Shown here piece by piece: positions 36,098 through 50,891 of a DNA stretch of 51,493 bases. The stretch's first letter is position 1; each line of letters begins with the position of its first letter. The notes below the pieces were generated by a model. That model saw only the letters and a program-made list of their open reading frames with translations, did no database searches and was not told the origin of the DNA. The translations under genes were made by a program, and so were the position numbers. Source of the stretch: a virus (taxonomy: Duplodnaviria; Caudoviricetes); IMG/VR virus record IMGVR_UViG_3300045955_000245, positions 1-51,493 of that record, one strand, 5' to 3'.

Positions 36098-37311
36098 GCC
36101 AACACCCGCCATTGCTTGGTGCGCATCCCTAAGAGTTGGCACGCGCCGGAGAGCGCGTCCACCTGGTCGTCGTGGGCACCCTGCGGAAACGCCTCGACCT
36201 CGGCCAGGAAGTCGCCCGTCCACGCACCCCGAACGAGTGCCACTTTGCCCTGCTCGGCCTTGGCGATCCACGGCTGCGCCCGCGCCAACTTGTCCCTGTC
36301 CACGGTCACCGGCCGTACCGGGGTCTTGACCGCCGCCACGTCCCTGAGAATATCTTGGACCGCCGCCAACTGGAAGCCGGCTTGCTCGATGCCCACGGGC
36401 GTCTCCGGTTCGGCCGCCATCGTCTCCAGGATCACCCGGCGGGCGTCGGGCCACTCCCACCGGCCGCGGCGGATGTCGGCTACCCATACCATCCCGTCCG
36501 TAGAGAGGGCCGCGCGGCAGCCAACGGTGTAGTCGGCGCTTTCCTTGGTGGACGCCGCCAGGTCCCAGTAGCGGCACCACTTGAGCGGCTCGCCGAAGGG
36601 CGGCGCGTCCACCAGCCGGAACCACTCGCGGCGGATCACGCCGGCGCCCAACGTCACGAACTCGCCGGCGAGCTCCTGGCGCGCGAACTCGCTCGAGTAC
36701 TGCGTCTGTAATGCCTGGCTGAAGTCCTCGTCCACGAACGGGTTGGCGGCCGTGCTGGTCTGGTAGATGGCCGTCATAGCATCGGCGCGCTGCACGAACA
36801 CGTCGTAGACCCAGTTGAAGCCCCGCGGCGTCGTCGTCACCCAGCAGCGGCCGGTCACGCCGCCCTCGCGCAGGACGCCCAGCAGCACCGGCCACGTCTG
36901 TGCGTCGCAGTGCGCCGCCTCGTCGATCCAGGCCCACGACGCGGATGGTCCCCGCAGGCGGTCGGGGTGCTCGGCCGAGCGAAACAGGACCTCGTGCCCG
37001 CCGCGCACGCTCAGGCGCATCTCCGACTGGTTGACGTGGTCGAGCAGTGGTGCCCACACGTCCAGGGCGACTCGCCAGGTGGCGTCCCGCAGGATCGGGT
37101 AGGTAGGCGCCACCACAATGCCCAGCGACGGCCGCCCGAACTCCTGCACCAGCGCCTTGGCGGCGCCGGCCATCGTCTTGCCCGAACCGCGCCCGCCGAT
37201 GAACGCGCAGAAGCGGTGCTGGTCTGACACGAAGCGGTACTGCGTCCCGGACAGCGCCAGGGCGGCGCTGTTGCCGGCGGCGGCGCTAGGACGCGCTCGG
37301 GACTCGATCAT
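36094..37311 (-). CDS. terL: Terminase large subunit
   Basis: GGRGSGKT; WIDEAA; TTTPRG; YWDLA...DYT; HDDQVDALS. Confidence 0.95.
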   Translation of the reverse strand: MIESRARPSAAAGNSAALALSGTQYRFVSDQHRFCAFIGGRGSGKTMAGAAKALVQEFGRPSLGIVVAPTYPILRDATWRVALDVWAPLLDHVNQSEMRLSVRGGHEVLFRSAEHPDRLRGPSASWAWIDEAAHCDAQTWPVLLGVLREGGVTGRCWVTTTPRGFNWVYDVFVQRADAMTAIYQTSTAANPFVDEDFSQALQTQYSSEFARQELAGEFVTLGAGVIRREWFRLVDAPPFGEPLKWCRYWDLAASTKESADYTVGCRAALSTDGMVWVADIRRGRWEWPDARRVILETMAAEPETPVGIEQAGFQLAAVQDILRDVAAVKTPVRPVTVDRDKLARAQPWIAKAEQGKVALVRGAWTGDFLAEVEAFPQGAHDDQVDALSGACQLLGMRTKQWRVLA

Positions 37312-38258: not shown

Positions 38259-39365
38259 CTACGATGCGTCCAACGTCACGGCCGTCCGGTTGCCGTCGGG
38301 GTCGACGCTCGCCGTCACCCGATTTTTGGTGTCGCCCACGTCCCTAATCGTGACGGTATTCGTCGCCGCGCCCGACAGTTTGCCGGCCAGCGACGACAGC
38401 ATCACGCGCATCGACTGGCGCAGCGTCCAGCCGGTCTCGACGCCGGCGGCCCGGTCCAAGAGCGCGTCGGCGTTCTGGGTCGCCGTGGGGATGTCCCCCG
38501 TGGCCGCCGGACTCGCCGGCAGGTTATCCGTCTTGGCCTTGATGGCCGCCACTTCGGTATCGACAAAATCGTCGATGGTGTCCACGCTGGTCTGCGTGGC
38601 CCTCGACGAGATGGTCGCGTTCACGTTATCCACCAGCAGCTTGCCGACGCTGTTCGCCGTCGAGAGCGCCGAGGTGAGCGCGTCCCACACCGCCTGCACC
38701 CCCGCTGCGGACAAACTGTAGCCGCTCTTGTCGTTGTTGGTCGCTACCGTCACGGTAAAGCCAAACGCCGAGAGCGTCCTAGTCGACGACGACCACACCT
38801 TATCAGCCGCCGCCTGGGAGAACTCGCTCGCGCCGATGGCGTCGGTGGCAATGGCGGCGGCATCGATGGCGCCCGCGGCGAAGGTGGCGGCCGTAATGGC
38901 GCCATCCGCAAGTTCGGCCGCGCCGATGGCGTCGGTGGCAATGGCGGCGGCATCGATGGCGCCCGCGGTGAACGCGGCCGCCGTAATCGCGCCGTTCTGG
39001 AAACTGCCGACCTCGACACCGCCCGAGGCGTCCACGTCCATGCTCCTGCCCGACGTGGCGGGATAGGCCAGGTCGTCGGGCACCCGCGCGTGGACACGCC
39101 ACTGGAGGTTCACGCGCTTGACGCCGGTGGCGCTCAGGCTCACCGTCAAGACGCCCAGGGTATCGGTGTGGCTGCTCGACAGGGTGAGCGCGTAAAACCC
39201 GTTCTCGCGCTCGCTCACCGTGACGGTCATGGCCGCGAAGGCGGCGCCGCCCTTGCTGATGCGCTTCGTCCAGTCGCCGTCGACCTTGCCGGTCACGCCG
39301 TCGCCCGACGCGTCGAACGCAAACACGACCACGTCGAGGCTGGTCGATTGCTTGCAGGGAAACAC
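38259..39365 (-). CDS. Repeat-rich fibre-like protein
   Basis: 10-aa repeats (GAITAATFAA/GAIDAAAIAT); NGFYALTL..HTDTLG N-terminus paralogous to 39605..41293. Confidence 0.7.
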   Translation of the reverse strand: MFPCKQSTSLDVVVFAFDASGDGVTGKVDGDWTKRISKGGAAFAAMTVTVSERENGFYALTLSSSHTDTLGVLTVSLSATGVKRVNLQWRVHARVPDDLAYPATSGRSMDVDASGGVEVGSFQNGAITAAAFTAGAIDAAAIATDAIGAAELADGAITAATFAAGAIDAAAIATDAIGASEFSQAAADKVWSSSTRTLSAFGFTVTVATNNDKSGYSLSAAGVQAVWDALTSALSTANSVGKLLVDNVNATISSRATQTSVDTIDDFVDTEVAAIKAKTDNLPASPAATGDIPTATQNADALLDRAAGVETGWTLRQSMRVMLSSLAGKLSGAATNTVTIRDVGDTKNRVTASVDPDGNRTAVTLDAS

Positions 39366-39604: not shown

Positions 39605-41293
39605 TTACGCAAACTCGCCGCGAGTGTGCAACGTCCCCGAATCCGAATGGGTCGACGTCGCCAGCGTCGTGCTCCCGTCGTCTTTGAACAGCGTTTGGGT
39701 CGTCGCGTCCTGCGTGATCTTGTTGCGCGCCAGCGAGAACGCCCACGTCAGCGCCTCGAGCGTCGTGCCGGTCACGCCGGGCACCGCCGACAACTCGGTC
39801 ATGGCCTTGGCCCACACCGCATCGCGTATCTCGTTGGCGGCGTCACTGGCGATCGCCGCCGCATCAATCGCGCCGGCCGCGAACGTGGCCGCGTCGATCG
39901 TCCCGGCGGCCACCTTCGCCGCCGTAATCGCATCGGCGGCGATGGCCCCCGCGTCGATGGCGTTGTCCGCAATGACCGTCGCGGTAATCGCGTCGGCCGC
40001 AAACGTGGCGGCGGTAATGGCGCCATCGGCGAGCGCGTCGGCGTCGATGGCGTCGGTGGCGATCTTCGCGGCGGTAATGGCCCCATCCTGGATTGAGGTA
40101 GACGTGACGCTGTTCGCCGCGAGCGTGGCAACCGTCTGCACCAGCCCGCCCGCCAACGCGCTCGGGGCACCCCCGAGCCACAGCGCGAGGTCGACGCGGC
40201 CGGACGGCAGCAGCGCGAAGGTGCTGGTGGCGTCCGGGTTGGTGGCCCAGTTGGGCGTGACGTTGGCCACTTTCGACGAGCCGGTGTAGTCGCTCACCAG
40301 GCGCACCTGACCGGCCCCGGTGCCGCCGGTGAGGTAGACCAGCGCGTCGTTGTAGAAGTCGTCGGTGGCGCTCGCGCTCGCATCCAACGTAATCGTGCCG
40401 GCGGCGCCCGCCTGGGCGGTGTTGCTCCTGATGCTCTGCAAACCCGTATCGGCCGCAAAGGTAGCGCGGTCGATAGCGCCATCGGCAATCTTGGCGGCGG
40501 TGATCGCGCCGTCCGCCAATTCGGACGACGTGATGGCGTTCGCCGCGATGGCCGTGGCGTCAATCGCCCCGGCGGCAAACGTCGCCGCGTCGATCGCGCC
40601 GTCGGCAATCTTGGCGGCCGTAATCGCATCGGCCGCGATCTTCGCCGCCGTAATCGCGTCGGTCGCAATGGCCGTAGCATCAATGGCGCCGGCCGCGAAC
40701 GTCGCAGCGGTAATCGCGCCGTCCGCCAATTCATTGGCTCCGATGGCGTCCGTGGCGATGGCGGCGGCGTCAATCGCCCCGGCCGCGAAGGTGGCCGCGT
40801 CGATGGCCCCATCCGCGATCTTGGCGGCCGTGATGGCGTCGGCCGCGATGGCGGTCGCGGTGATGGCCCCCGAGGCAATGGCCCCGGCGCTGGCGTCCAC
40901 CCGGCCGGACACGAGCGCGTTGGGCGCGCTCCCTAACCACTGCGTCACGTCGACCTGGAGCAGGTCGGTCGCGAGGTACGAGTCCCACACCTGCGACGGC
41001 ACGACTAAGAACTCGCGCCACACCGGCAGCGCGCCGGACTCGTGCACCGCCACGACGAGCACCCCCAGGGTGTTGGTATCGGTGGCGTCGAGCGTGACCT
41101 CGTACCAACCGTTCTCCTCGTGCGTGAGCGTTTGGGCCGCCGCCTTCTGCGCCCAGTTGCCGGCGTTTTTCTTTAGGCGCACGTCCGGCTGCGTAATCGT
41201 GAGCCCGGTCTCGGCGGTCTTGCCGTCCGTGTCATCGAGGAACGGGCCGAGTGGCACGTCGACGCTCGTGGACTGGCGCAGCCAGGTGGCCAT
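39605..41293 (-). CDS. Repeat-rich fibre-like protein
   Basis: More than 20 decameric repeats; ASATDDFYN...GTGAGQVR...DYTG domain. Confidence 0.75.
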   Translation of the reverse strand: MATWLRQSTSVDVPLGPFLDDTDGKTAETGLTITQPDVRLKKNAGNWAQKAAAQTLTHEENGWYEVTLDATDTNTLGVLVVAVHESGALPVWREFLVVPSQVWDSYLATDLLQVDVTQWLGSAPNALVSGRVDASAGAIASGAITATAIAADAITAAKIADGAIDAATFAAGAIDAAAIATDAIGANELADGAITAATFAAGAIDATAIATDAITAAKIAADAITAAKIADGAIDAATFAAGAIDATAIAANAITSSELADGAITAAKIADGAIDRATFAADTGLQSIRSNTAQAGAAGTITLDASASATDDFYNDALVYLTGGTGAGQVRLVSDYTGSSKVANVTPNWATNPDATSTFALLPSGRVDLALWLGGAPSALAGGLVQTVATLAANSVTSTSIQDGAITAAKIATDAIDADALADGAITAATFAADAITATVIADNAIDAGAIAADAITAAKVAAGTIDAATFAAGAIDAAAIASDAANEIRDAVWAKAMTELSAVPGVTGTTLEALTWAFSLARNKITQDATTQTLFKDDGSTTLATSTHSDSGTLHTRGEFA

Positions 41294-46271: not shown

Positions 46272-46687
46272 CGCGTCGTTCCCCTCCTGAGTGCGGACTC
46301 CCACTCGCCAAGCGCCGCCCAATCCGCGCAGTCGGCCACCGGTTCGAGGCGCACGATCGGCGGTGACGGACGCCAGTCGCCGCCGTGGTAGGCCAGCACC
46401 CGGAACGGCCCGGTCTCGGCGTCGCGTGCCTCAACGACGAAGATGGGCACCAACCGCATCAGCGCGTTGTAGGCGATGACCTCGGCAAAACTGAGCGGTT
46501 CTCCCGGTTGCTTGCAGTCCAGGATGGCCACAATGCCGGGAGGCGCCTTGCGGATCAACACCAGATCGAGGTCCGATGCCCAGAACCCCGGCCCCAACTT
46601 CGCCTTATGGGCATGCTTGAAGGCATCCCGACGAGGGCTGCCCCGCAGCGAGAGCGCATGCTTGAAGTCGTCTACCCGCAACGGCAC
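46268..46687 (-). CDS. Putative PD-(D/E)XK nuclease
   Basis: ASDLDLVL...VAILDCKQ. Confidence 0.5.
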   Translation of the reverse strand: MPLRVDDFKHALSLRGSPRRDAFKHAHKAKLGPGFWASDLDLVLIRKAPPGIVAILDCKQPGEPLSFAEVIAYNALMRLVPIFVVEARDAETGPFRVLAYHGGDWRPSPPIVRLEPVADCADWAALGEWESALRRGTTR

Positions 46688-46788
46688 GCGTTCACCCCCA
46701 AGGGCGACGTACACACCACATGCACGCTGGCCGGCTCCATCGCGGCGAGCACGTCGACCACGTGGCCGGTGAGCACGCGCGTCGTCAT
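46672..46788 (-). pseudogene. Truncated methyltransferase 5' stub
   Basis: MTTRVLTGHVVDVLAAMEPASVHVVCTSP|LGVNACRCG*: MTase start broken inside the SPPY motif. Confidence 0.7.
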
Positions 46789-47147
46789 GCCCCCGGCTCC
46801 TGCCCGTAGATGGTCGAGCGATAACACTCGTACCGGTGCGCGTGTTTTCCGGGTTGGGCCGATGGACGCGTCGCACCCGTGCGGACGATCCAGCCCCGCT
46901 TGAGCGCCCGCTGCCACACGGCCCCCATCGCGTTTCCAGATACCGGGTGCCACTCCAGCGCCGCCGCCAAATCGTCGGTGTGCACGTAGCGATTGCGCCT
47001 GCACACCCGCTCGAGCACGTCCAGCGCGTACTCGCCCCACGCGGTGCCCGCCTGCGCCGCCGCGAGGTCCATCCCGCATTCCTTGCGCCGCTCGCCTTCC
47101 GGTGCGTCGAACAGCGGGAGTTGGCGTAGTCGTTGGCGCAGTCTCAT
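46785..47147 (-). CDS. Hypothetical protein (possible winged helix)
   Basis: QLPLF...NAMGAVWQRA..RGWI..TG. Confidence 0.6.
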   Translation of the reverse strand: MRLRQRLRQLPLFDAPEGERRKECGMDLAAAQAGTAWGEYALDVLERVCRRNRYVHTDDLAAALEWHPVSGNAMGAVWQRALKRGWIVRTGATRPSAQPGKHAHRYECYRSTIYGQEPGA

Positions 47148-47157
47148 GTCCGCATCG

Positions 47158-47366
47158 TCCTTTCCGCCGCGTGTTCTGTCGGTGTGCGTCCCTGCCTGGC
47201 CCTACCCGACCTTGCCACGCCTGACCGCACCCAGCCGAGCCCTCCCGGACCCAACCTTGCGCTACCCTGCCCAGCCTTGCCTGGCCCTACCCGACCTTGC
47301 CCGGCCCGGCCGCACCCAGCCGAGCCACACCGCGCCCTACCCGACCCAACCTGGCCCGACCCAGCC
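47158..47366 (-). repeat. GGY-NN pentamer array C (35 units, 47366-47192) plus conserved tail; candidate ncRNA
   Basis: 33 of 35 units start GGC/GGT in unbroken 5-nt phase; intergenic; tail ends ACGCGGCGGAAAGGA. Confidence 0.9.
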
Positions 47367-47377
47367 CTGTGGCCCGA

Positions 47378-47851
47378 TCACATCATCCCGTTGGCCCGCA
47401 GGATGTCCTCGATGGCATTCAGGCGCTGCTCGTGGGCGTGGGCAAACGCCGCCAGCGTGCCCAGGATTTTCCGTTGGGCATCGAACGACGCGAGTTGTTC
47501 GCCGGTCAACCGACTCAAGTCGGTCACGTTGGAGACGGTGAGTGCCGATTCGTACTGGCGGCGCGCCTTGCTCTTGTGCTGGTTGGCAACGCTCAGGTGC
47601 TCGACCGCCTGGATGACGCGGTAGCCCCTGCCCGGCAGCGCCACCAGCCAGCGCCGCCGCTGCTCCCCGAACTCCTTGCGTGCCCGGTAGATGGCGTGGC
47701 GCGTCCGCTTGACCTCCTCGACCGACTTCTCCAACACGTCGGCCAATTGGTCGTAGGTGATCACGTCGCCAAACTCGGCCCCGCTCAGCAAGTGGTCGAA
47801 GATCAGCCGCCACTCGGCGACCTCGCCCTTCGGCTCGAACAGCGTGCTCAT
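47378..47851 (-). CDS. Winged-helix-like protein between the pentamer arrays
   Basis: GDVITYDQLADVL...AIYRARKE...LVALPGRGYRVI, then a helical C-terminus. Confidence 0.65.
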   Translation of the reverse strand: MSTLFEPKGEVAEWRLIFDHLLSGAEFGDVITYDQLADVLEKSVEEVKRTRHAIYRARKEFGEQRRRWLVALPGRGYRVIQAVEHLSVANQHKSKARRQYESALTVSNVTDLSRLTGEQLASFDAQRKILGTLAAFAHAHEQRLNAIEDILRANGMM

Positions 47852-47860
47852 CGTCGTCGT

Positions 47861-48057
47861 TCCCTTTCGCCCCTGCGTCCTGCCTGTTGCGTATGGGTAT
47901 CCCTGCCCTGCCCAACCAAGCCATGCCTAGCCCTGCCGCGCCCAACCAAGCCACGCCTGGCCCCGCCGCGCCCCACCAAGCCCCGCCGAGCCACGGTCTG
48001 CCTCGCCCTGCCCCGCCTCGCCGTACCTCACCACGCCTCACCAAGCCACGCCAAGCC
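47861..48057 (-). repeat. GGY-NN pentamer array B (31 units, 48057-47903) plus tail; candidate ncRNA
   Basis: 30 of 31 units start GGC/GGT in phase; ends GGC-AG-GGA; tail ends GCGAAAGGGA. Confidence 0.9.
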
Positions 48058-48073
48058 GCGGCCTGCGCCCCGG

Positions 48074-48652
48074 CTAATGCGCGACGACCACCGTGAACCG
48101 GCCGTAGCCCAACTTGCGGGCGTCGCACAGGCCTTCGGATCGGCCAGCTTTCTCCGCGATCCGCACGAAGTCGTCGGGGTCGAGCACGTCCTCCTGGAGT
48201 TCGAGCTCGACCGTCAGCGACCAGCGGCGGAAGATGGGCCGCATCCGCATCACCTTGCCCCGCTGGATACCCACGCTCTTGCGGAAATGGAACTCCGGCG
48301 CCGCCCACAGTTTCAGCGGCTCGCGCGGGCCGTCGTACACCAGCGGCACGCGGTCGCTGACGACGGCGACGGCGCGAATCAGCGTGGCTCCCTGGCGCGT
48401 CAGCGTCGCGCCCCGCTCGAAGCACTTCACGACGTTGGCGGTCGGCACGTGGACGCCCATGTCGGCGTCGTGGTACAGGCCGCCCAGGAACTCCAGTCGC
48501 TCGATCTCGGCGTCGTCGGCCTCCGTCCGGTGCCGGCTCCCCTTGTCGGTCAGCTTCGCGATCTCCTTGGCGAAGCCGTTGGTCTTATCCGCCAGCTGCA
48601 CGTTGTGCATCACCAGCCCGGTCGTGCCGGTCAATTCCACGATGGTCCTCAC
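48074..48652 (-). CDS. RAMP/Cas7-like protein (192 aa)
   Basis: GTG start with GGGAGG RBS; VELTGTTGLVMHN strand, VPTANVVKCFERGA, RPIFRRWSLTVEL, C-terminal Gly loop GLCDARKLGYGRF. Confidence 0.65.
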   Translation of the reverse strand: MRTIVELTGTTGLVMHNVQLADKTNGFAKEIAKLTDKGSRHRTEADDAEIERLEFLGGLYHDADMGVHVPTANVVKCFERGATLTRQGATLIRAVAVVSDRVPLVYDGPREPLKLWAAPEFHFRKSVGIQRGKVMRMRPIFRRWSLTVELELQEDVLDPDDFVRIAEKAGRSEGLCDARKLGYGRFTVVVAH

Positions 48653-48757
48653 GTCGTTTCCTCCCACGATGTCGTGTTCTGCGAGTGGTGCCCGCCCGTA
48701 GACAGGCCAGTGGTTGTGGCGTGGGGGTCCGACCCCAGCCAAGCCCAGCCTGGTCCC

Positions 48758-48857
48758 TCCTTTCCGCCGCGTACTTTCCGTGTGTCCCTGCCTTGCCCAG
48801 CCCTGCCGAGCCCGGCCCTGCCTGGCCCCGCCCGGCCTGGCCCGGCCGCGCCAAGCC
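48758..48857 (-). repeat. GGC-NN pentamer array A (14 units, 48857-48788) plus conserved tail; candidate ncRNA
   Basis: 14 of 14 units start GGC; ends GGC-AG-GGA; tail ends ACGCGGCGGAAAGGA, identical to array C. Confidence 0.9.
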
Positions 48858-48860
48858 CTG

Positions 48861-49835
48861 TCATGCGGTGAACTTCTTGCCCAGCTTCTCCGCCGCCGCC
48901 CGCATCGTCTGGTGGAACCGCTGCCGCTCCGCGTCTGTCGGTGGCACCAAGTCTGGCCGATCGGGCACCCGGATGGGCACGTACCGATCGACCTCGGGCG
49001 GCGCGCGGCCGTTTCCCTGGGCGCGCCGGGCCGCGTCGGCCGCCGCGCGCTCGTCCAGCCGCGCCAGCCGATCCGCTTCGGCCTTGTCCAACCAGTTGAC
49101 CAGGAAGCGGTAACTACACCGCTTCTGCCGGTGGCGCGGCTCACGCAGCCACTCGGCGATCTTCTCCGCCTCGATGGGCAGGTCGAGCAACGGGTAGCGC
49201 GTCCCCAGCTTGCGGAGTTGGGCGGCGTCTACCGCGTACCCCTGCTTGCCGAAGCCCGAAAGCGTCTCGTGGAAGTTCTGGAGATCGCCGTCGGACGCCG
49301 TGGTGCCTTCGGACGCGTCAGCGTCCAGCACCGCCGCCTCGCGCGAGACGGCGGTCCGGTTAGGTCCGGTCCGGTTAGGTCCGGTAGGCGCGTTACTTAG
49401 CGTTACAGGTGCGTTACTAACGCGTTTGTAACGCGTTACGTTTGCGTTACTCGCTTCCTGTAGGGAGGAAGTGTCCTGGTGGCGTTCGCGCCAGTGCTGC
49501 ACGCGTTGACGCGTTTGCTCGCGCACCCGGTCGCGTCGCTCAAGCAGGCGCCCTGCGTACTCGTACCAGTCGTGGATGGTGTTGTCCGCATCCACGAACC
49601 CGCACCGCAAGAGGGCCGCCGACAGCGCGGCCGGATCGCCGTCCCACAGACACGCGGCGGCGACGTCGCCCGTATCGCTGTTCGACAGGTCGCCGTCCGG
49701 TGCGTAATCGAGCGCCCACCACCACAGCAAGTGCAGATGACCGATGGTGGCGGGGACCGAAACGCCAAGCGCACGAGCCAATCGCAGCGTCTTGGGGTGC
49801 CTCGCTAGCGTGGTGTGGGACTCTATCCAAGCCAT
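48861..49835 (-). CDS. Phage replication initiator (replisome organizer-like)
   Basis: MAWIESH..L.RHPK..RLAR.LG...IGHL..LWWWA..YAPDG; IHDWYEY; FLVNWL C-domain. Confidence 0.8.
   Translation of the reverse strand: MAWIESHTTLARHPKTLRLARALGVSVPATIGHLHLLWWWALDYAPDGDLSNSDTGDVAAACLWDGDPAALSAALLRCGFVDADNTIHDWYEYAGRLLERRDRVREQTRQRVQHWRERHQDTSSLQEASNANVTRYKRVSNAPVTLSNAPTGPNRTGPNRTAVSREAAVLDADASEGTTASDGDLQNFHETLSGFGKQGYAVDAAQLRKLGTRYPLLDLPIEAEKIAEWLREPRHRQKRCSYRFLVNWLDKAEADRLARLDERAAADAARRAQGNGRAPPEVDRYVPIRVPDRPDLVPPTDAERQRFHQTMRAAAEKLGKKFTA
49353..49450. repeat. Probable replication origin iterons inside the initiator gene
   Basis: GCGTTAC at 49390, 49400, 49411, 49433 and 49444, inverted copy at 49428; adjacent GGTCC/GGTTA pentamers. 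Confidence 0.65.
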
Positions 49836-49847
49836 GCTACTACTAGT

Positions 49848-49876
49848 ATTTTACTAAGCCATACGTATGTCAGCAA
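49848..49876 (-). promoter_or_regulatory. Promoter of the replication/array operon
   Basis: TTGCTG(49876-49871)-N17-TAAAAT(49853-49848) with palindrome CATACGTATG (49860-49869) in the spacer. Confidence 0.6.
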
Positions 49877-50891
49877 GTGTCGTTTCGTGCGATAATGGCG
49901 TGGATGTCGCACGAGCAGGAGCGGAGTGATCATGGGGACCGTTGTCGACGTGAAGTTGGTTGACCACCGGCGCCGCCGGTACATGACCCAGGTGGAGTTG
50001 GCCGCCGCCGCCGGCGTCACGCCCTCGACCATCTTCAAGTTGGAGAAGGCCGGGCACCGGCCCCGCCTGTCCACCATGCGCCGCATCGCCGCCGCCCTGG
50101 GCGTCGAGCCGCTCGACGTCGACGAGTTCGCCAGGGCCGTCGAGCGCGAGCGGTAGCACCTGCTGGCGCAGCCGGTTGGCGGCGATGGCGCAGTTCTGCT
50201 CAAGCAGTTCCACGCCGATGGCCCACAGGCCGCGTTGCTGCGCCGCCACCAGCGTCGTACCGGTCCCGGCGAACGGGTCGAGTACGACGCCCCCAGTGGG
50301 GACGATTGCCAGCAAGTCCACCATCAGCGCCGTGGGCTTGCCCGCAATGTGCCACTTGTCGGCCTGGCGCACGACGTAGCGGTAGAAACCGGGCAGGCAG
50401 GCGCCAGCATCGGCCATCGGACCGTTGCTGCCCCACACCACGTACTCGCACTGATTGCGATAGCGCCCCTTCTGCGGTCGGGCGGCCTCGCTTTTGTCCC
50501 ACGGCACGACGCCGCGCCACACCCACCCGCCGGCCTGTAGCGCGTCGGTCGTGGTGGGCAACTGCCGCCAGTCGGTGAACAGACAGCAGATGCCGCCCGG
50601 TTTCGTGACGCGCAGGCACTCCGCCAGCCACAGGGCACACCAGTAGCCGTAGGCCCGCTGGTCGCGCGTGTCACCAGCGAACTCGGCCCGCTGCACGGCG
50701 GGATCGGAGAGGTACTTCACGCTCGGCGGCGGCAGCCGGTCGCCGCGCACCATCCCACCAGACGAGTAGGGCGGGTCGGCGACGACGGCGTCGACGCTTG
50801 CATCCGGGAGCGATGCGAGCACGGCCAGCGCATCGCCGTGGTACAGCGTCACCCCGCCGTGGTGGTAGTAGGGCGGCGGCAACCCGTTCAT
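49854..50891 (-). CDS. DNA adenine methyltransferase (DPPY, beta class)
   Basis: LYHGDAL; VADPPY; HIAGKP; VLDPFAGTGTT; the last ~95 codons run antisense through the XRE gene and its promoter. Confidence 0.9.
   Translation of the reverse strand: MNGLPPPYYHHGGVTLYHGDALAVLASLPDASVDAVVADPPYSSGGMVRGDRLPPPSVKYLSDPAVQRAEFAGDTRDQRAYGYWCALWLAECLRVTKPGGICCLFTDWRQLPTTTDALQAGGWVWRGVVPWDKSEAARPQKGRYRNQCEYVVWGSNGPMADAGACLPGFYRYVVRQADKWHIAGKPTALMVDLLAIVPTGGVVLDPFAGTGTTLVAAQQRGLWAIGVELLEQNCAIAANRLRQQVLPLALDGPGELVDVERLDAQGGGDAAHGGQAGPVPGLLQLEDGRGRDAGGGGQLHLGHVPAAPVVNQLHVDNGPHDHSAPARATSTPLSHETTLADIRMA
49926..50156 (+). CDS. Small XRE-family HTH regulator
   Basis: MTQVELAAAAGVTPSTIFKLEKAGHRPRLSTMRRIAAALGV. 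Confidence 0.85.
   Translation: MIMGTVVDVKLVDHRRRRYMTQVELAAAAGVTPSTIFKLEKAGHRPRLSTMRRIAAALGVEPLDVDEFARAVERER

Follow-up and report, generated by a model that had tools for sequence, protein, structure and literature searches.

Three pentanucleotide arrays of an uncultured soil phage as probable VIPR guide RNAs, with a shared 3' terminus that probably joins a repeat-tail junction to the Shine-Dalgarno site of the next gene

The viral record IMGVR_UViG_3300045955_000245 (Duplodnaviria; Caudoviricetes), of which positions 1 to 51,493 constitute the window analysed here, contains three arrays of a pentanucleotide repeat that end alike on the minus strand, and the locus raises the question of what such arrays encode and why they share a 3' terminus. 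The first-pass annotation had taken the terminus for a processing or handle signal, or for a means of coupling array binding to autoregulation of the downstream gene. The arrays probably encode guide RNAs, called vrRNAs, of a system named VIPR (Viral Interference Programmable Repeat) that lies in the early operon of a soil phage, and their terminus probably consists of a constant junction and tail together with the Shine-Dalgarno (SD) site of the next gene. Complete, and making up the whole assembly, the window resembles a phage genome and has 69% GC; of 11 public sequencing runs listed for it, six runs of soil metagenome DNA contain at least 86% of its sampled words.

All three arrays are intergenic, lie on the minus strand and keep a perfect 5-nt phase. 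Array A (48786-48860), a candidate vrRNA guide region, consists of 15 YNNGG units; array B (47901-48060) has 32 unit slots, 31 of them with GG, including a degenerate unit CAGAC and an internal 30-nt duplication; and array C (47190-47369) has 36 unit slots, 35 of them with GG, including a degenerate unit TAGCG after GGCAGGG. Of the 83 units, 82 begin with C or T, 81 have G at position 4 and 82 have G at position 5, and positions 2 and 3 (NN) take 15 different dinucleotides. The commonest unit is CAGGG (11/83), and the degenerate units of B and C, one in each array, both stand close behind a CAGGG unit. When the 51.5-kb genome was scanned for GG at a period of 5 nt, scores of at least 9 of 10 were found at the three arrays only (elsewhere the minus strand reached at most 8 and the plus strand 7). 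The arrays are not of the CRISPR kind, in which unique spacers alternate with identical direct repeats of 24-48 nt, since they have a period of 5 nt and no repeat-spacer structure, and Rfam gave no match with an expect value (E) up to 1 in positions 46500-49500.

VIPR is an RNA-guided DNA silencing system in which a minimal RAMP protein, termed Vipr, is accompanied by the accessory gene vap (10.64898/2026.04.26.720920). It was described in three bioRxiv preprints of 2026, and nearly all of the description concerns E. coli phage SUSP1 and one Pseudomonas prophage. Its vrRNAs consist of 9-16 YNNGG repeats with a conserved GGY and a hypervariable NN, followed by an invariable 3' tail that was likened to the handle of a CRISPR RNA (crRNA); the NN dinucleotides pair with double-stranded DNA under a one-base skip, and both binding and silencing by vrRNAs were shown experimentally (10.64898/2026.04.26.720920). 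The vrRNAs are expressed as RNAs of ~100 nt that co-purify with Vipr, a minimal RAMP made up of an RRM core, a G-loop and a thumb, and in type II VIPR the vap gene is of a DNA-binding type (bioRxiv VIPR preprints).

Between arrays A and B lies a minus-strand gene (48074..48652) encoding a 192-aa protein with a predicted minimal RAMP fold, which matches gp039 (Vipr) of SUSP1 with E 6.5e-21 and 29-30% identity over 187 aa (pairwise E 3e-26). An AlphaFold (AF2) model of this protein made from a 44-sequence alignment has a mean predicted local distance difference test score (pLDDT) of 96.1 (a single-sequence model, with pLDDT 38, was unusable), and ranks 1-50 of the Foldseek PDB listing for the model consist of RAMP entries from CRISPR systems throughout (Cmr, Csm, type III-D, type VII or Cas6), the top match having E 7e-6 and a template modelling (TM) score of about 0.5. 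Four residues conserved across the 44 aligned sequences, H16, R138, D177 and R179, correspond to H17, R138, D177 and R179 of the SUSP1 protein. By homology and predicted structure, this product is a putative Vipr homolog of the minimal RAMP type; it has no Pfam family, falls in phrog_4652 (function unknown) and has no relatives in genome_contigs. Between arrays B and C, on the same strand, is a putative vap-like accessory gene (47378..47851; 157 aa; phrog_5926), whose product is weakly similar to SUSP1 gp038, encoded at the vap1 position (27% identity over 90 aa, pairwise E 1e-4), and matches the product of the gene that follows vipr in a related locus, L131 (E 8e-13). Its homologs adjoin vipr homologs in phages MakoManhole and LittleE, no relatives of it were found in viral_contigs or genome_contigs, and its putative DNA-binding function is taken solely from the annotation of another record.

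Arrays A and B thus flank vipr and array C follows vap, all on one strand, and this strand link recurs elsewhere: in 83 fetched loci with Vipr homologs at 37-62% identity (numbered here, like other fetched stretches, with the prefix L), arrays of at least six units are on the vipr strand in 216 cases and on the other strand in four. Because of the Vipr homology, the RAMP model, the YNNGG arrays, the strand link and the vap-like gene, the locus is assigned, as far as sequence and structure prediction can assign it, to the VIPR systems, and it is probably type II-like.

Arrays of this kind might otherwise be explained as DNA or RNA structure (a G-quadruplex, an R-loop or a Rho-loading C-rich antisense RNA) or as neutral slippage, their shared ends being accidents of descent. 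A GG every 5 nt on the non-template strand could indeed form a G-quadruplex or R-loop, and the 30-nt duplication within B would fit slippage, but conservation of GGY alongside variation of NN fits a repeat read by a protein and does not fit slippage, the arrays are tied to a same-strand RAMP gene across the 83 loci, and binding and silencing by RNAs of this type are published (10.64898/2026.04.26.720920); such an explanation is very improbable. The earlier argument that simple slippage satellites would not share defined ends is upheld by the match to vrRNA architecture and by the conserved junction described below, and the case shows that a criterion of defined ends can tell functional repeat RNAs and satellites apart. 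A TRAP-like ring binder, a CsrA sponge, a Chi cluster, a G-quadruplex or R-loop and a ribosome standby site were all dropped as candidates in favour of VIPR.

The SUSP1 vipr locus proved to be arranged as published, with a single array upstream of vipr and, downstream of it, vap followed by three arrays. The type II system of SUSP1 and the present locus have in common a YNNGG repeat in which NN varies, a last repeat that is constant and is followed by a 3' tail, and arrays flanking a RAMP gene of ~190 aa that is accompanied on the same strand by a vap1-like gene. They differ in that an array separates vipr from vap here, whereas the two genes are adjacent in SUSP1; in that two of the arrays here have 32 and 36 units instead of the published 9-16; in that the tail here is short and C/A-rich with no predicted fold and holds the SD site of the next gene, whereas that of SUSP1 is a pseudoknot of ~40 nt; and in that the arrays here have no predicted promoter or terminator of their own and carry three tails that are not identical. 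The tail is a variant within a recently described kind of system. The crRNAs of class 1 CRISPR systems, bound in Cas7/Csm3 filaments, resemble the present arrays in joining a variable guide to a constant cap and in their RAMP-fold protein that polymerises on RNA, but this locus has no repeat-spacer array or cas genes, its repeat recurs every 5 nt and has its conserved bases within the guide itself, and its "handle" is not a CRISPR repeat.

Each array ends on the minus strand in GGCAGGG followed by A (48785-48792 in A, 47900-47907 in B and 47189-47196 in C), then a C/A-rich stretch (ACACAC; ACGCACACC; ATACCCATACGC) and then a purine motif, in agreement with what the first-pass annotation had described. 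Tail A (48754..48785, minus) reads A, CACAC, GGAAAGT, the 15-mer ACGCGGCGGAAAGGA (48758-48772) and GGGA; tail B (47852..47900, minus) reads ATACCCATACGCAACAGGCAGGACGCA, the variant GGGGCGAAAGGGA of the 15-mer (47861-47873, the predicted SD site of vap) and 9 nt to the ATG, and also carries ACGCAGGGGCGAAAGGGA; tail C (47148..47189, minus) reads ACGCACACCGACAGAAC, the 15-mer again (47158-47172, containing the predicted SD site) and 10 nt to the ATG. The identity of A and C over the 15-mer and the existence of a variant in B, both reported earlier, were reproduced, and the two exact copies compare with 0.00 in 100 shuffles. The genome contains only three copies of GGCAGGGA, all at array ends. Set beside the invariable tail of published vrRNAs, the three termini agree in GGCAGGGA and in the C/A-rich stretch behind it, whereas the 15-mer is common to A and C only and B diverges.

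Since the 15-mer is the same in A and C and the NN positions of the two arrays, counted from the 3' end, agree at ~9/30 (by eye), about the chance level, the simplest reading of the sequences is that the two would descend from one duplicated array-plus-tail module, the guide part of which has since diverged. It had also been pointed out that A and C both begin CAG-GGC; this is true, but it does not exceed chance given the frequency of CAGGG among the units here and in the homologous loci, where CAGGG opens 15 of 204 arrays (7%) and makes up 6% of internal units.

The leader between tail A and vipr (48653..48753, minus) consists of five pentamers (48729-48753; CCAGG CTGGG CTTGG CTGGG GTCGG), a C/A-rich stretch, a UACG-loop hairpin (48690-48707), CAGAACACG and the vipr SD site GGGAGGAAACGAC. 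This mini-array with its C/A stretch and hairpin may be a degenerate second vrRNA or a part of the vipr leader. The sequence CAGAACACG, found in tail C, the vipr leader and the tails of L132 and L133, was considered as a tail motif and rejected as not clearly enriched (CAGAAC, 5 observed against 2.2 expected, in 3 loci), and tRNA-like tails were rejected for this phage, ARAGORN finding 0 tRNAs in the window.

The homologous loci indicate which part of the terminus is conserved. After removal of duplicates and of ends near contig edges, 188 unique array ends in 66 loci remained, and the terminal unit is CA[AG]GG at 76 of the 188 (82 of 202 before correction), compared with 340 of 2702 internal units (odds ratio 4.7, p 7e-20). 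This enrichment of CA[AG]GG as the last repeat shows that the homologous loci conserve the repeat-tail junction. The same unit also ends arrays that precede another array or a hairpin instead of a gene (L132, L153, L200 and L205). Beyond the junction the tails are lineage-specific: the first 12 nt have a mean identity of 0.46 within a locus and 0.26 between loci, for pairs that are not independent, and 18.6% of pairs within a locus reach at least 75% identity, compared with 0.27% between loci. The expectation that tails would be conserved in homologous loci is borne out for the terminal unit. Besides array-like words, the enriched tail 6-mers are GAAAGG (9 against 1.5), ACACAC (8 against 0.8) and GGTTCG (16 against 4.3 expected, in 14 loci). 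L134, which at 62% identity is the nearest relative that has context, reads GGCAAGG, ACACACGACACGG and, farther on, CGAAAGGAAAGACGACACACC before the ATG of vipr, a layout of C/A-rich stretch and then SD site as in this phage. Arrays in the homologous loci have a median of 14 units, with at least 30 units in 15 of 188. An Rfam search of 11 related loci had as its sole match a sub-threshold CRISPR-DR16 in L134, outside the arrays. Relatives of the tail were also sought with a 23-base gapped pattern, which had 0 matches in IMG/VR and one in genome_contigs (L130, coding-looking DNA of an Acidobacteriaceae metagenome-assembled genome, without arrays) that was read as chance.

The purine motif has a distribution of its own. 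GAAAGGA occurs in four copies in the genome, all on the gene strand, of which three sit 7-12 nt before an ATG; GAAAGGA or GAAAGGGA is so placed at the ATGs at 47147, 47851 and 51085 and at the gene after 30878. The motif lies 9 nt before the vap ATG at 47851 in B (CGAAAGGGA) and 10 nt before the ATG at 47147 in C, which bears out the statement of the first-pass annotation that these two tails overlap or abut the ribosome-binding site of the next gene. The A copy (48758-48764) is ~100 nt before the vipr start (GTG 48652) and has no canonical start at normal spacing; the nearest start in frame with it, a TTG, follows AAAGGAG by 14 nt, and the homologs start at the position of GTG 48652, which has its own SD site. 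A purine motif 5-12 nt before a real gene start is present in B, in C and at two array-less genes, but the copy in A is not so placed. In L134, L140, L144 and L148, CG(G)AAAGGA is 8-12 nt before the vipr start. Because GAAAGGA precedes ATGs, including those of array-less genes, and vipr starts in relatives, the purine motif of B and C is better explained as being mainly the putative SD site of the next gene. It presumably owes this role to complementarity with the 3' end of the host 16S rRNA. In its spacing to the ATG it resembles SD sites; the orphan copy in A, and an A-C identity that runs 8 nt beyond the SD core, set it apart from them. The proposed handle or processing signal is thus supported in part: the conserved junction would be the counterpart of the published vrRNA tail, and the purine motif is better assigned to translation.

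The terminus could, alternatively, be a translation-initiation region and nothing else, no part of the tail being read by Vipr and the A copy being a leftover of duplication; the arrays would still be vrRNAs, with ends set by filament extent and host nucleases. This would suit the SD placement of GAAAGGA at three of its four sites, the lack of predicted structure in the tails, and the position of arrays in the homologous loci, where in 30 of 65 unique loci an array stops at most 60 nt (7-53 nt) short of the vipr start and the last unit itself forms AAGGAG before vipr in L190, L180 and L149. It is at odds with the use of CA[AG]GG to end arrays that face other arrays or hairpins, with the A copy that serves no canonical start, and with SUSP1, where the tail is a pseudoknot by which the RNA is capped at its 3' end beside the last protomers and is a real component of the ribonucleoprotein (10.64898/2026.04.26.720927). 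On balance this alternative is unlikely, though it has to be taken seriously, and a terminus composed of both a junction with its tail and an SD site is preferred.

Several results weigh against that preference. Two of the SD-placed copies of GAAAGGA (51096 and 30878) are without an array, so that a handle function is not needed to account for the motif, and the 51096 copy even has a similar GCGGCC-GAAAGGA context. The count of GGCAGGGA is not above expectation (3 against 2.52 expected, with 51 of 100 shuffles reaching 3); because it matches composition, only its placement at the three ends is informative. Alignment of tail B with A and C is limited to GGCAGGGA, scattered C's and ACGC..G..AAAGG. 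The tails are not predicted to fold stably (z-scores 0.44, -1.88, 0.67 and 1.53) and show nothing like the SUSP1 pseudoknot. No 6-mer other than array-like words, GAAAGG, ACACAC and GGTTCG was enriched in tails across the clade. Arrays B and C exceed the published vrRNA length. No target under the one-base skip at 80% or more was found in the phage itself (best 16/22) or in 1.4 Mb of fetched loci (best 19/24). Finally, the sole metatranscriptome run, which holds 6% of the sampled words, yielded two 151-nt contigs within the replication gene (49467-49617 and 49681-49831) and left the arrays uncovered.

By analogy with SUSP1, each Vipr protomer would bind one YNNGG unit, holding GGY and leaving NN free for target DNA, and protomers would polymerise along the repeats, with the junction and tail as the 3' limit of the filament. 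The terminus would then have two layers. The first, comprising the last repeat CAGGG, the A and the C/A-rich stretch, would be the repeat-tail junction and the counterpart of the constant 3' tail of SUSP1, most likely the place where the Vipr filament ends or starts. The second, GAAAGGA, would be the SD site of the next gene, serving vap in B and the gene for a 120-aa protein in C; the orphan copy in A was probably carried along when the array-plus-tail module was duplicated. No promoter-like or terminator-like sites were predicted inside the arrays or tails, and because the tail overlaps the ribosome-binding site of the next gene and no promoter or terminator of its own is predicted, the vrRNAs would come out of the operon transcript. 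Transcription of the operon, processing into vrRNAs, loading of Vipr at the tail and any effect on translation are inferred.

One elaboration of the preferred reading, somewhat less likely than the initiation-region explanation above and accordingly doubtful, makes the unstructured tail itself the translation-initiation region of the next gene. Guides would be cut from, or assembled on, the operon mRNA; Vipr loading at the junction would determine how vap and the downstream gene are translated here, and vipr in relatives; and the arrays of 32 and 36 units would form very long filaments or else be staggered tracts of several guides, divided where GGCAGGG is followed by a degenerate unit. The degenerate-unit sites in B and C may mark internal vrRNA boundaries of a kind termed "staggered" in the VIPR literature.

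A more specific proposal, close to the autoregulation suggested at first, is a combined signal in which Vipr loading on the tail hides the SD sites of vap and of the 120-aa gene (and in relatives that of vipr), with feedback on translation of the operon. The SD site lies within the 42-49 nt from last repeat to start codon in B and C, and the proximity of arrays to vipr starts in 30 of the 65 homologous loci would agree with it. A general rule that array ends precede gene starts was rejected, however, since in a crude count the starts of open reading frames lie within 45 nt of 98 of 188 array ends and of 449 of 940 random positions (p 0.30), and in SUSP1 no array stands between the adjacent vipr and vap. 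Feedback of this kind is improbable.

The tail may also matter beyond this phage. A shared consensus tail is taken, in the preprint on competition with satellites, to make a vrRNA competent for formation of, or loading into, the Vipr complex (10.64898/2026.10.15.759431). If the tail decides which Vipr loads a vrRNA, as that preprint assumes, a catalogue of tail types would be needed to predict the hijacking of guides between phages; the types seen in this analysis are the C/A-rich stretch plus SD site, hairpins, and tRNA-like minihelices in actinophages. The present locus carries the logic of VIPR into an uncultured high-GC soil phage, with 83 guide units in three arrays and a tail unlike the SUSP1 pseudoknot.

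A perfect GGYNN pattern of 13 units matched at least 120 viral stretches in IMG/VR (L002-L121); among the matches listed, GC ranges from 29 to 76%, there are usually several arrays per contig, and tails are conserved within a contig. Among these same matches the tails are contig-specific and very diverse, including UUCG-loop hairpins, intrinsic terminators, AT-rich boxes and short linkers such as CTACCTCAGGG. The VIPR loci of actinophages (Gordonia phage MakoManhole and Mycobacterium phages LittleE and prophiBWHA-1) have arrays followed by a tRNA-like minihelix, which consists of an acceptor-like stem and a T-arm with a GGTTCGA loop (L126:1365-1405 and 2695-2745; L127:2680-2735 and 2835-2885; L128:1345-1400), and similar sites occur in the metagenomic L052, L186, L195, L198 and L212. 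Such a minihelix would suit processing by RNase P and RNase Z. tRNA predictions in eight minihelix loci gave two odd "tRNAs" with ARAGORN and none with Rfam, and the main text of the discovery preprint does not mention tRNA (10.64898/2026.04.26.720920).

A blastn search with the region matched array B alone, to a similar pentamer array in Cluster F mycobacteriophages. In this cluster (Cheoctovirus: Saal, Gorge, BobaPhett, Mattes, SwagPigglett, James and Philus; 12 records) an NNNGG array of ~250 bp lies between gp50 and gp51, at 36583-36833 in Saal (L001:2925-3175; also L214), and the C-terminal ~180 residues of gp51 match a Vipr profile with E 9.2e-5. The Cluster F phages are therefore likely to have a VIPR system, so far not annotated, beside their immunity region.

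The arrays of the soil phage belong to a minus-strand run with the order replication-initiator gene, array A, vipr, array B, vap-like gene, array C and the 120-aa gene, upstream of which is a promoter-like site (49845-49873, minus). The replication initiation protein gene (48861..49835, minus; phrog_9474, E 3.5e-41) is first in the operon, and its stop codon abuts array A; the 120-aa gene (46785..47147, minus; phrog_27658), of unknown function, has its SD site inside tail C. Iteron-like repeats at 49352-49440 within the initiator gene, comprising CGGTCCGGTTAGGTC x2.3 and then GCGTTAC-type repeats of 11/21 bp that form a 16-bp hairpin, are probably the replication origin. The origin is likewise placed within the initiator gene in the case of lambda O. 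Back-to-back promoter-like sites (49845-49896) separate this early operon from a plus-strand gene for a 76-aa HTH_3 (Cro/CI-type) protein (49926-50156), and the region is likely a lysis-lysogeny or early-control switch. Elsewhere in the window, long-period tandem repeats of 30, 90 and 120 bp with 64-93% matches (38825-38993 and 40450-40870), in coding-looking minus-strand DNA, possibly encode a repeat-rich structural protein.

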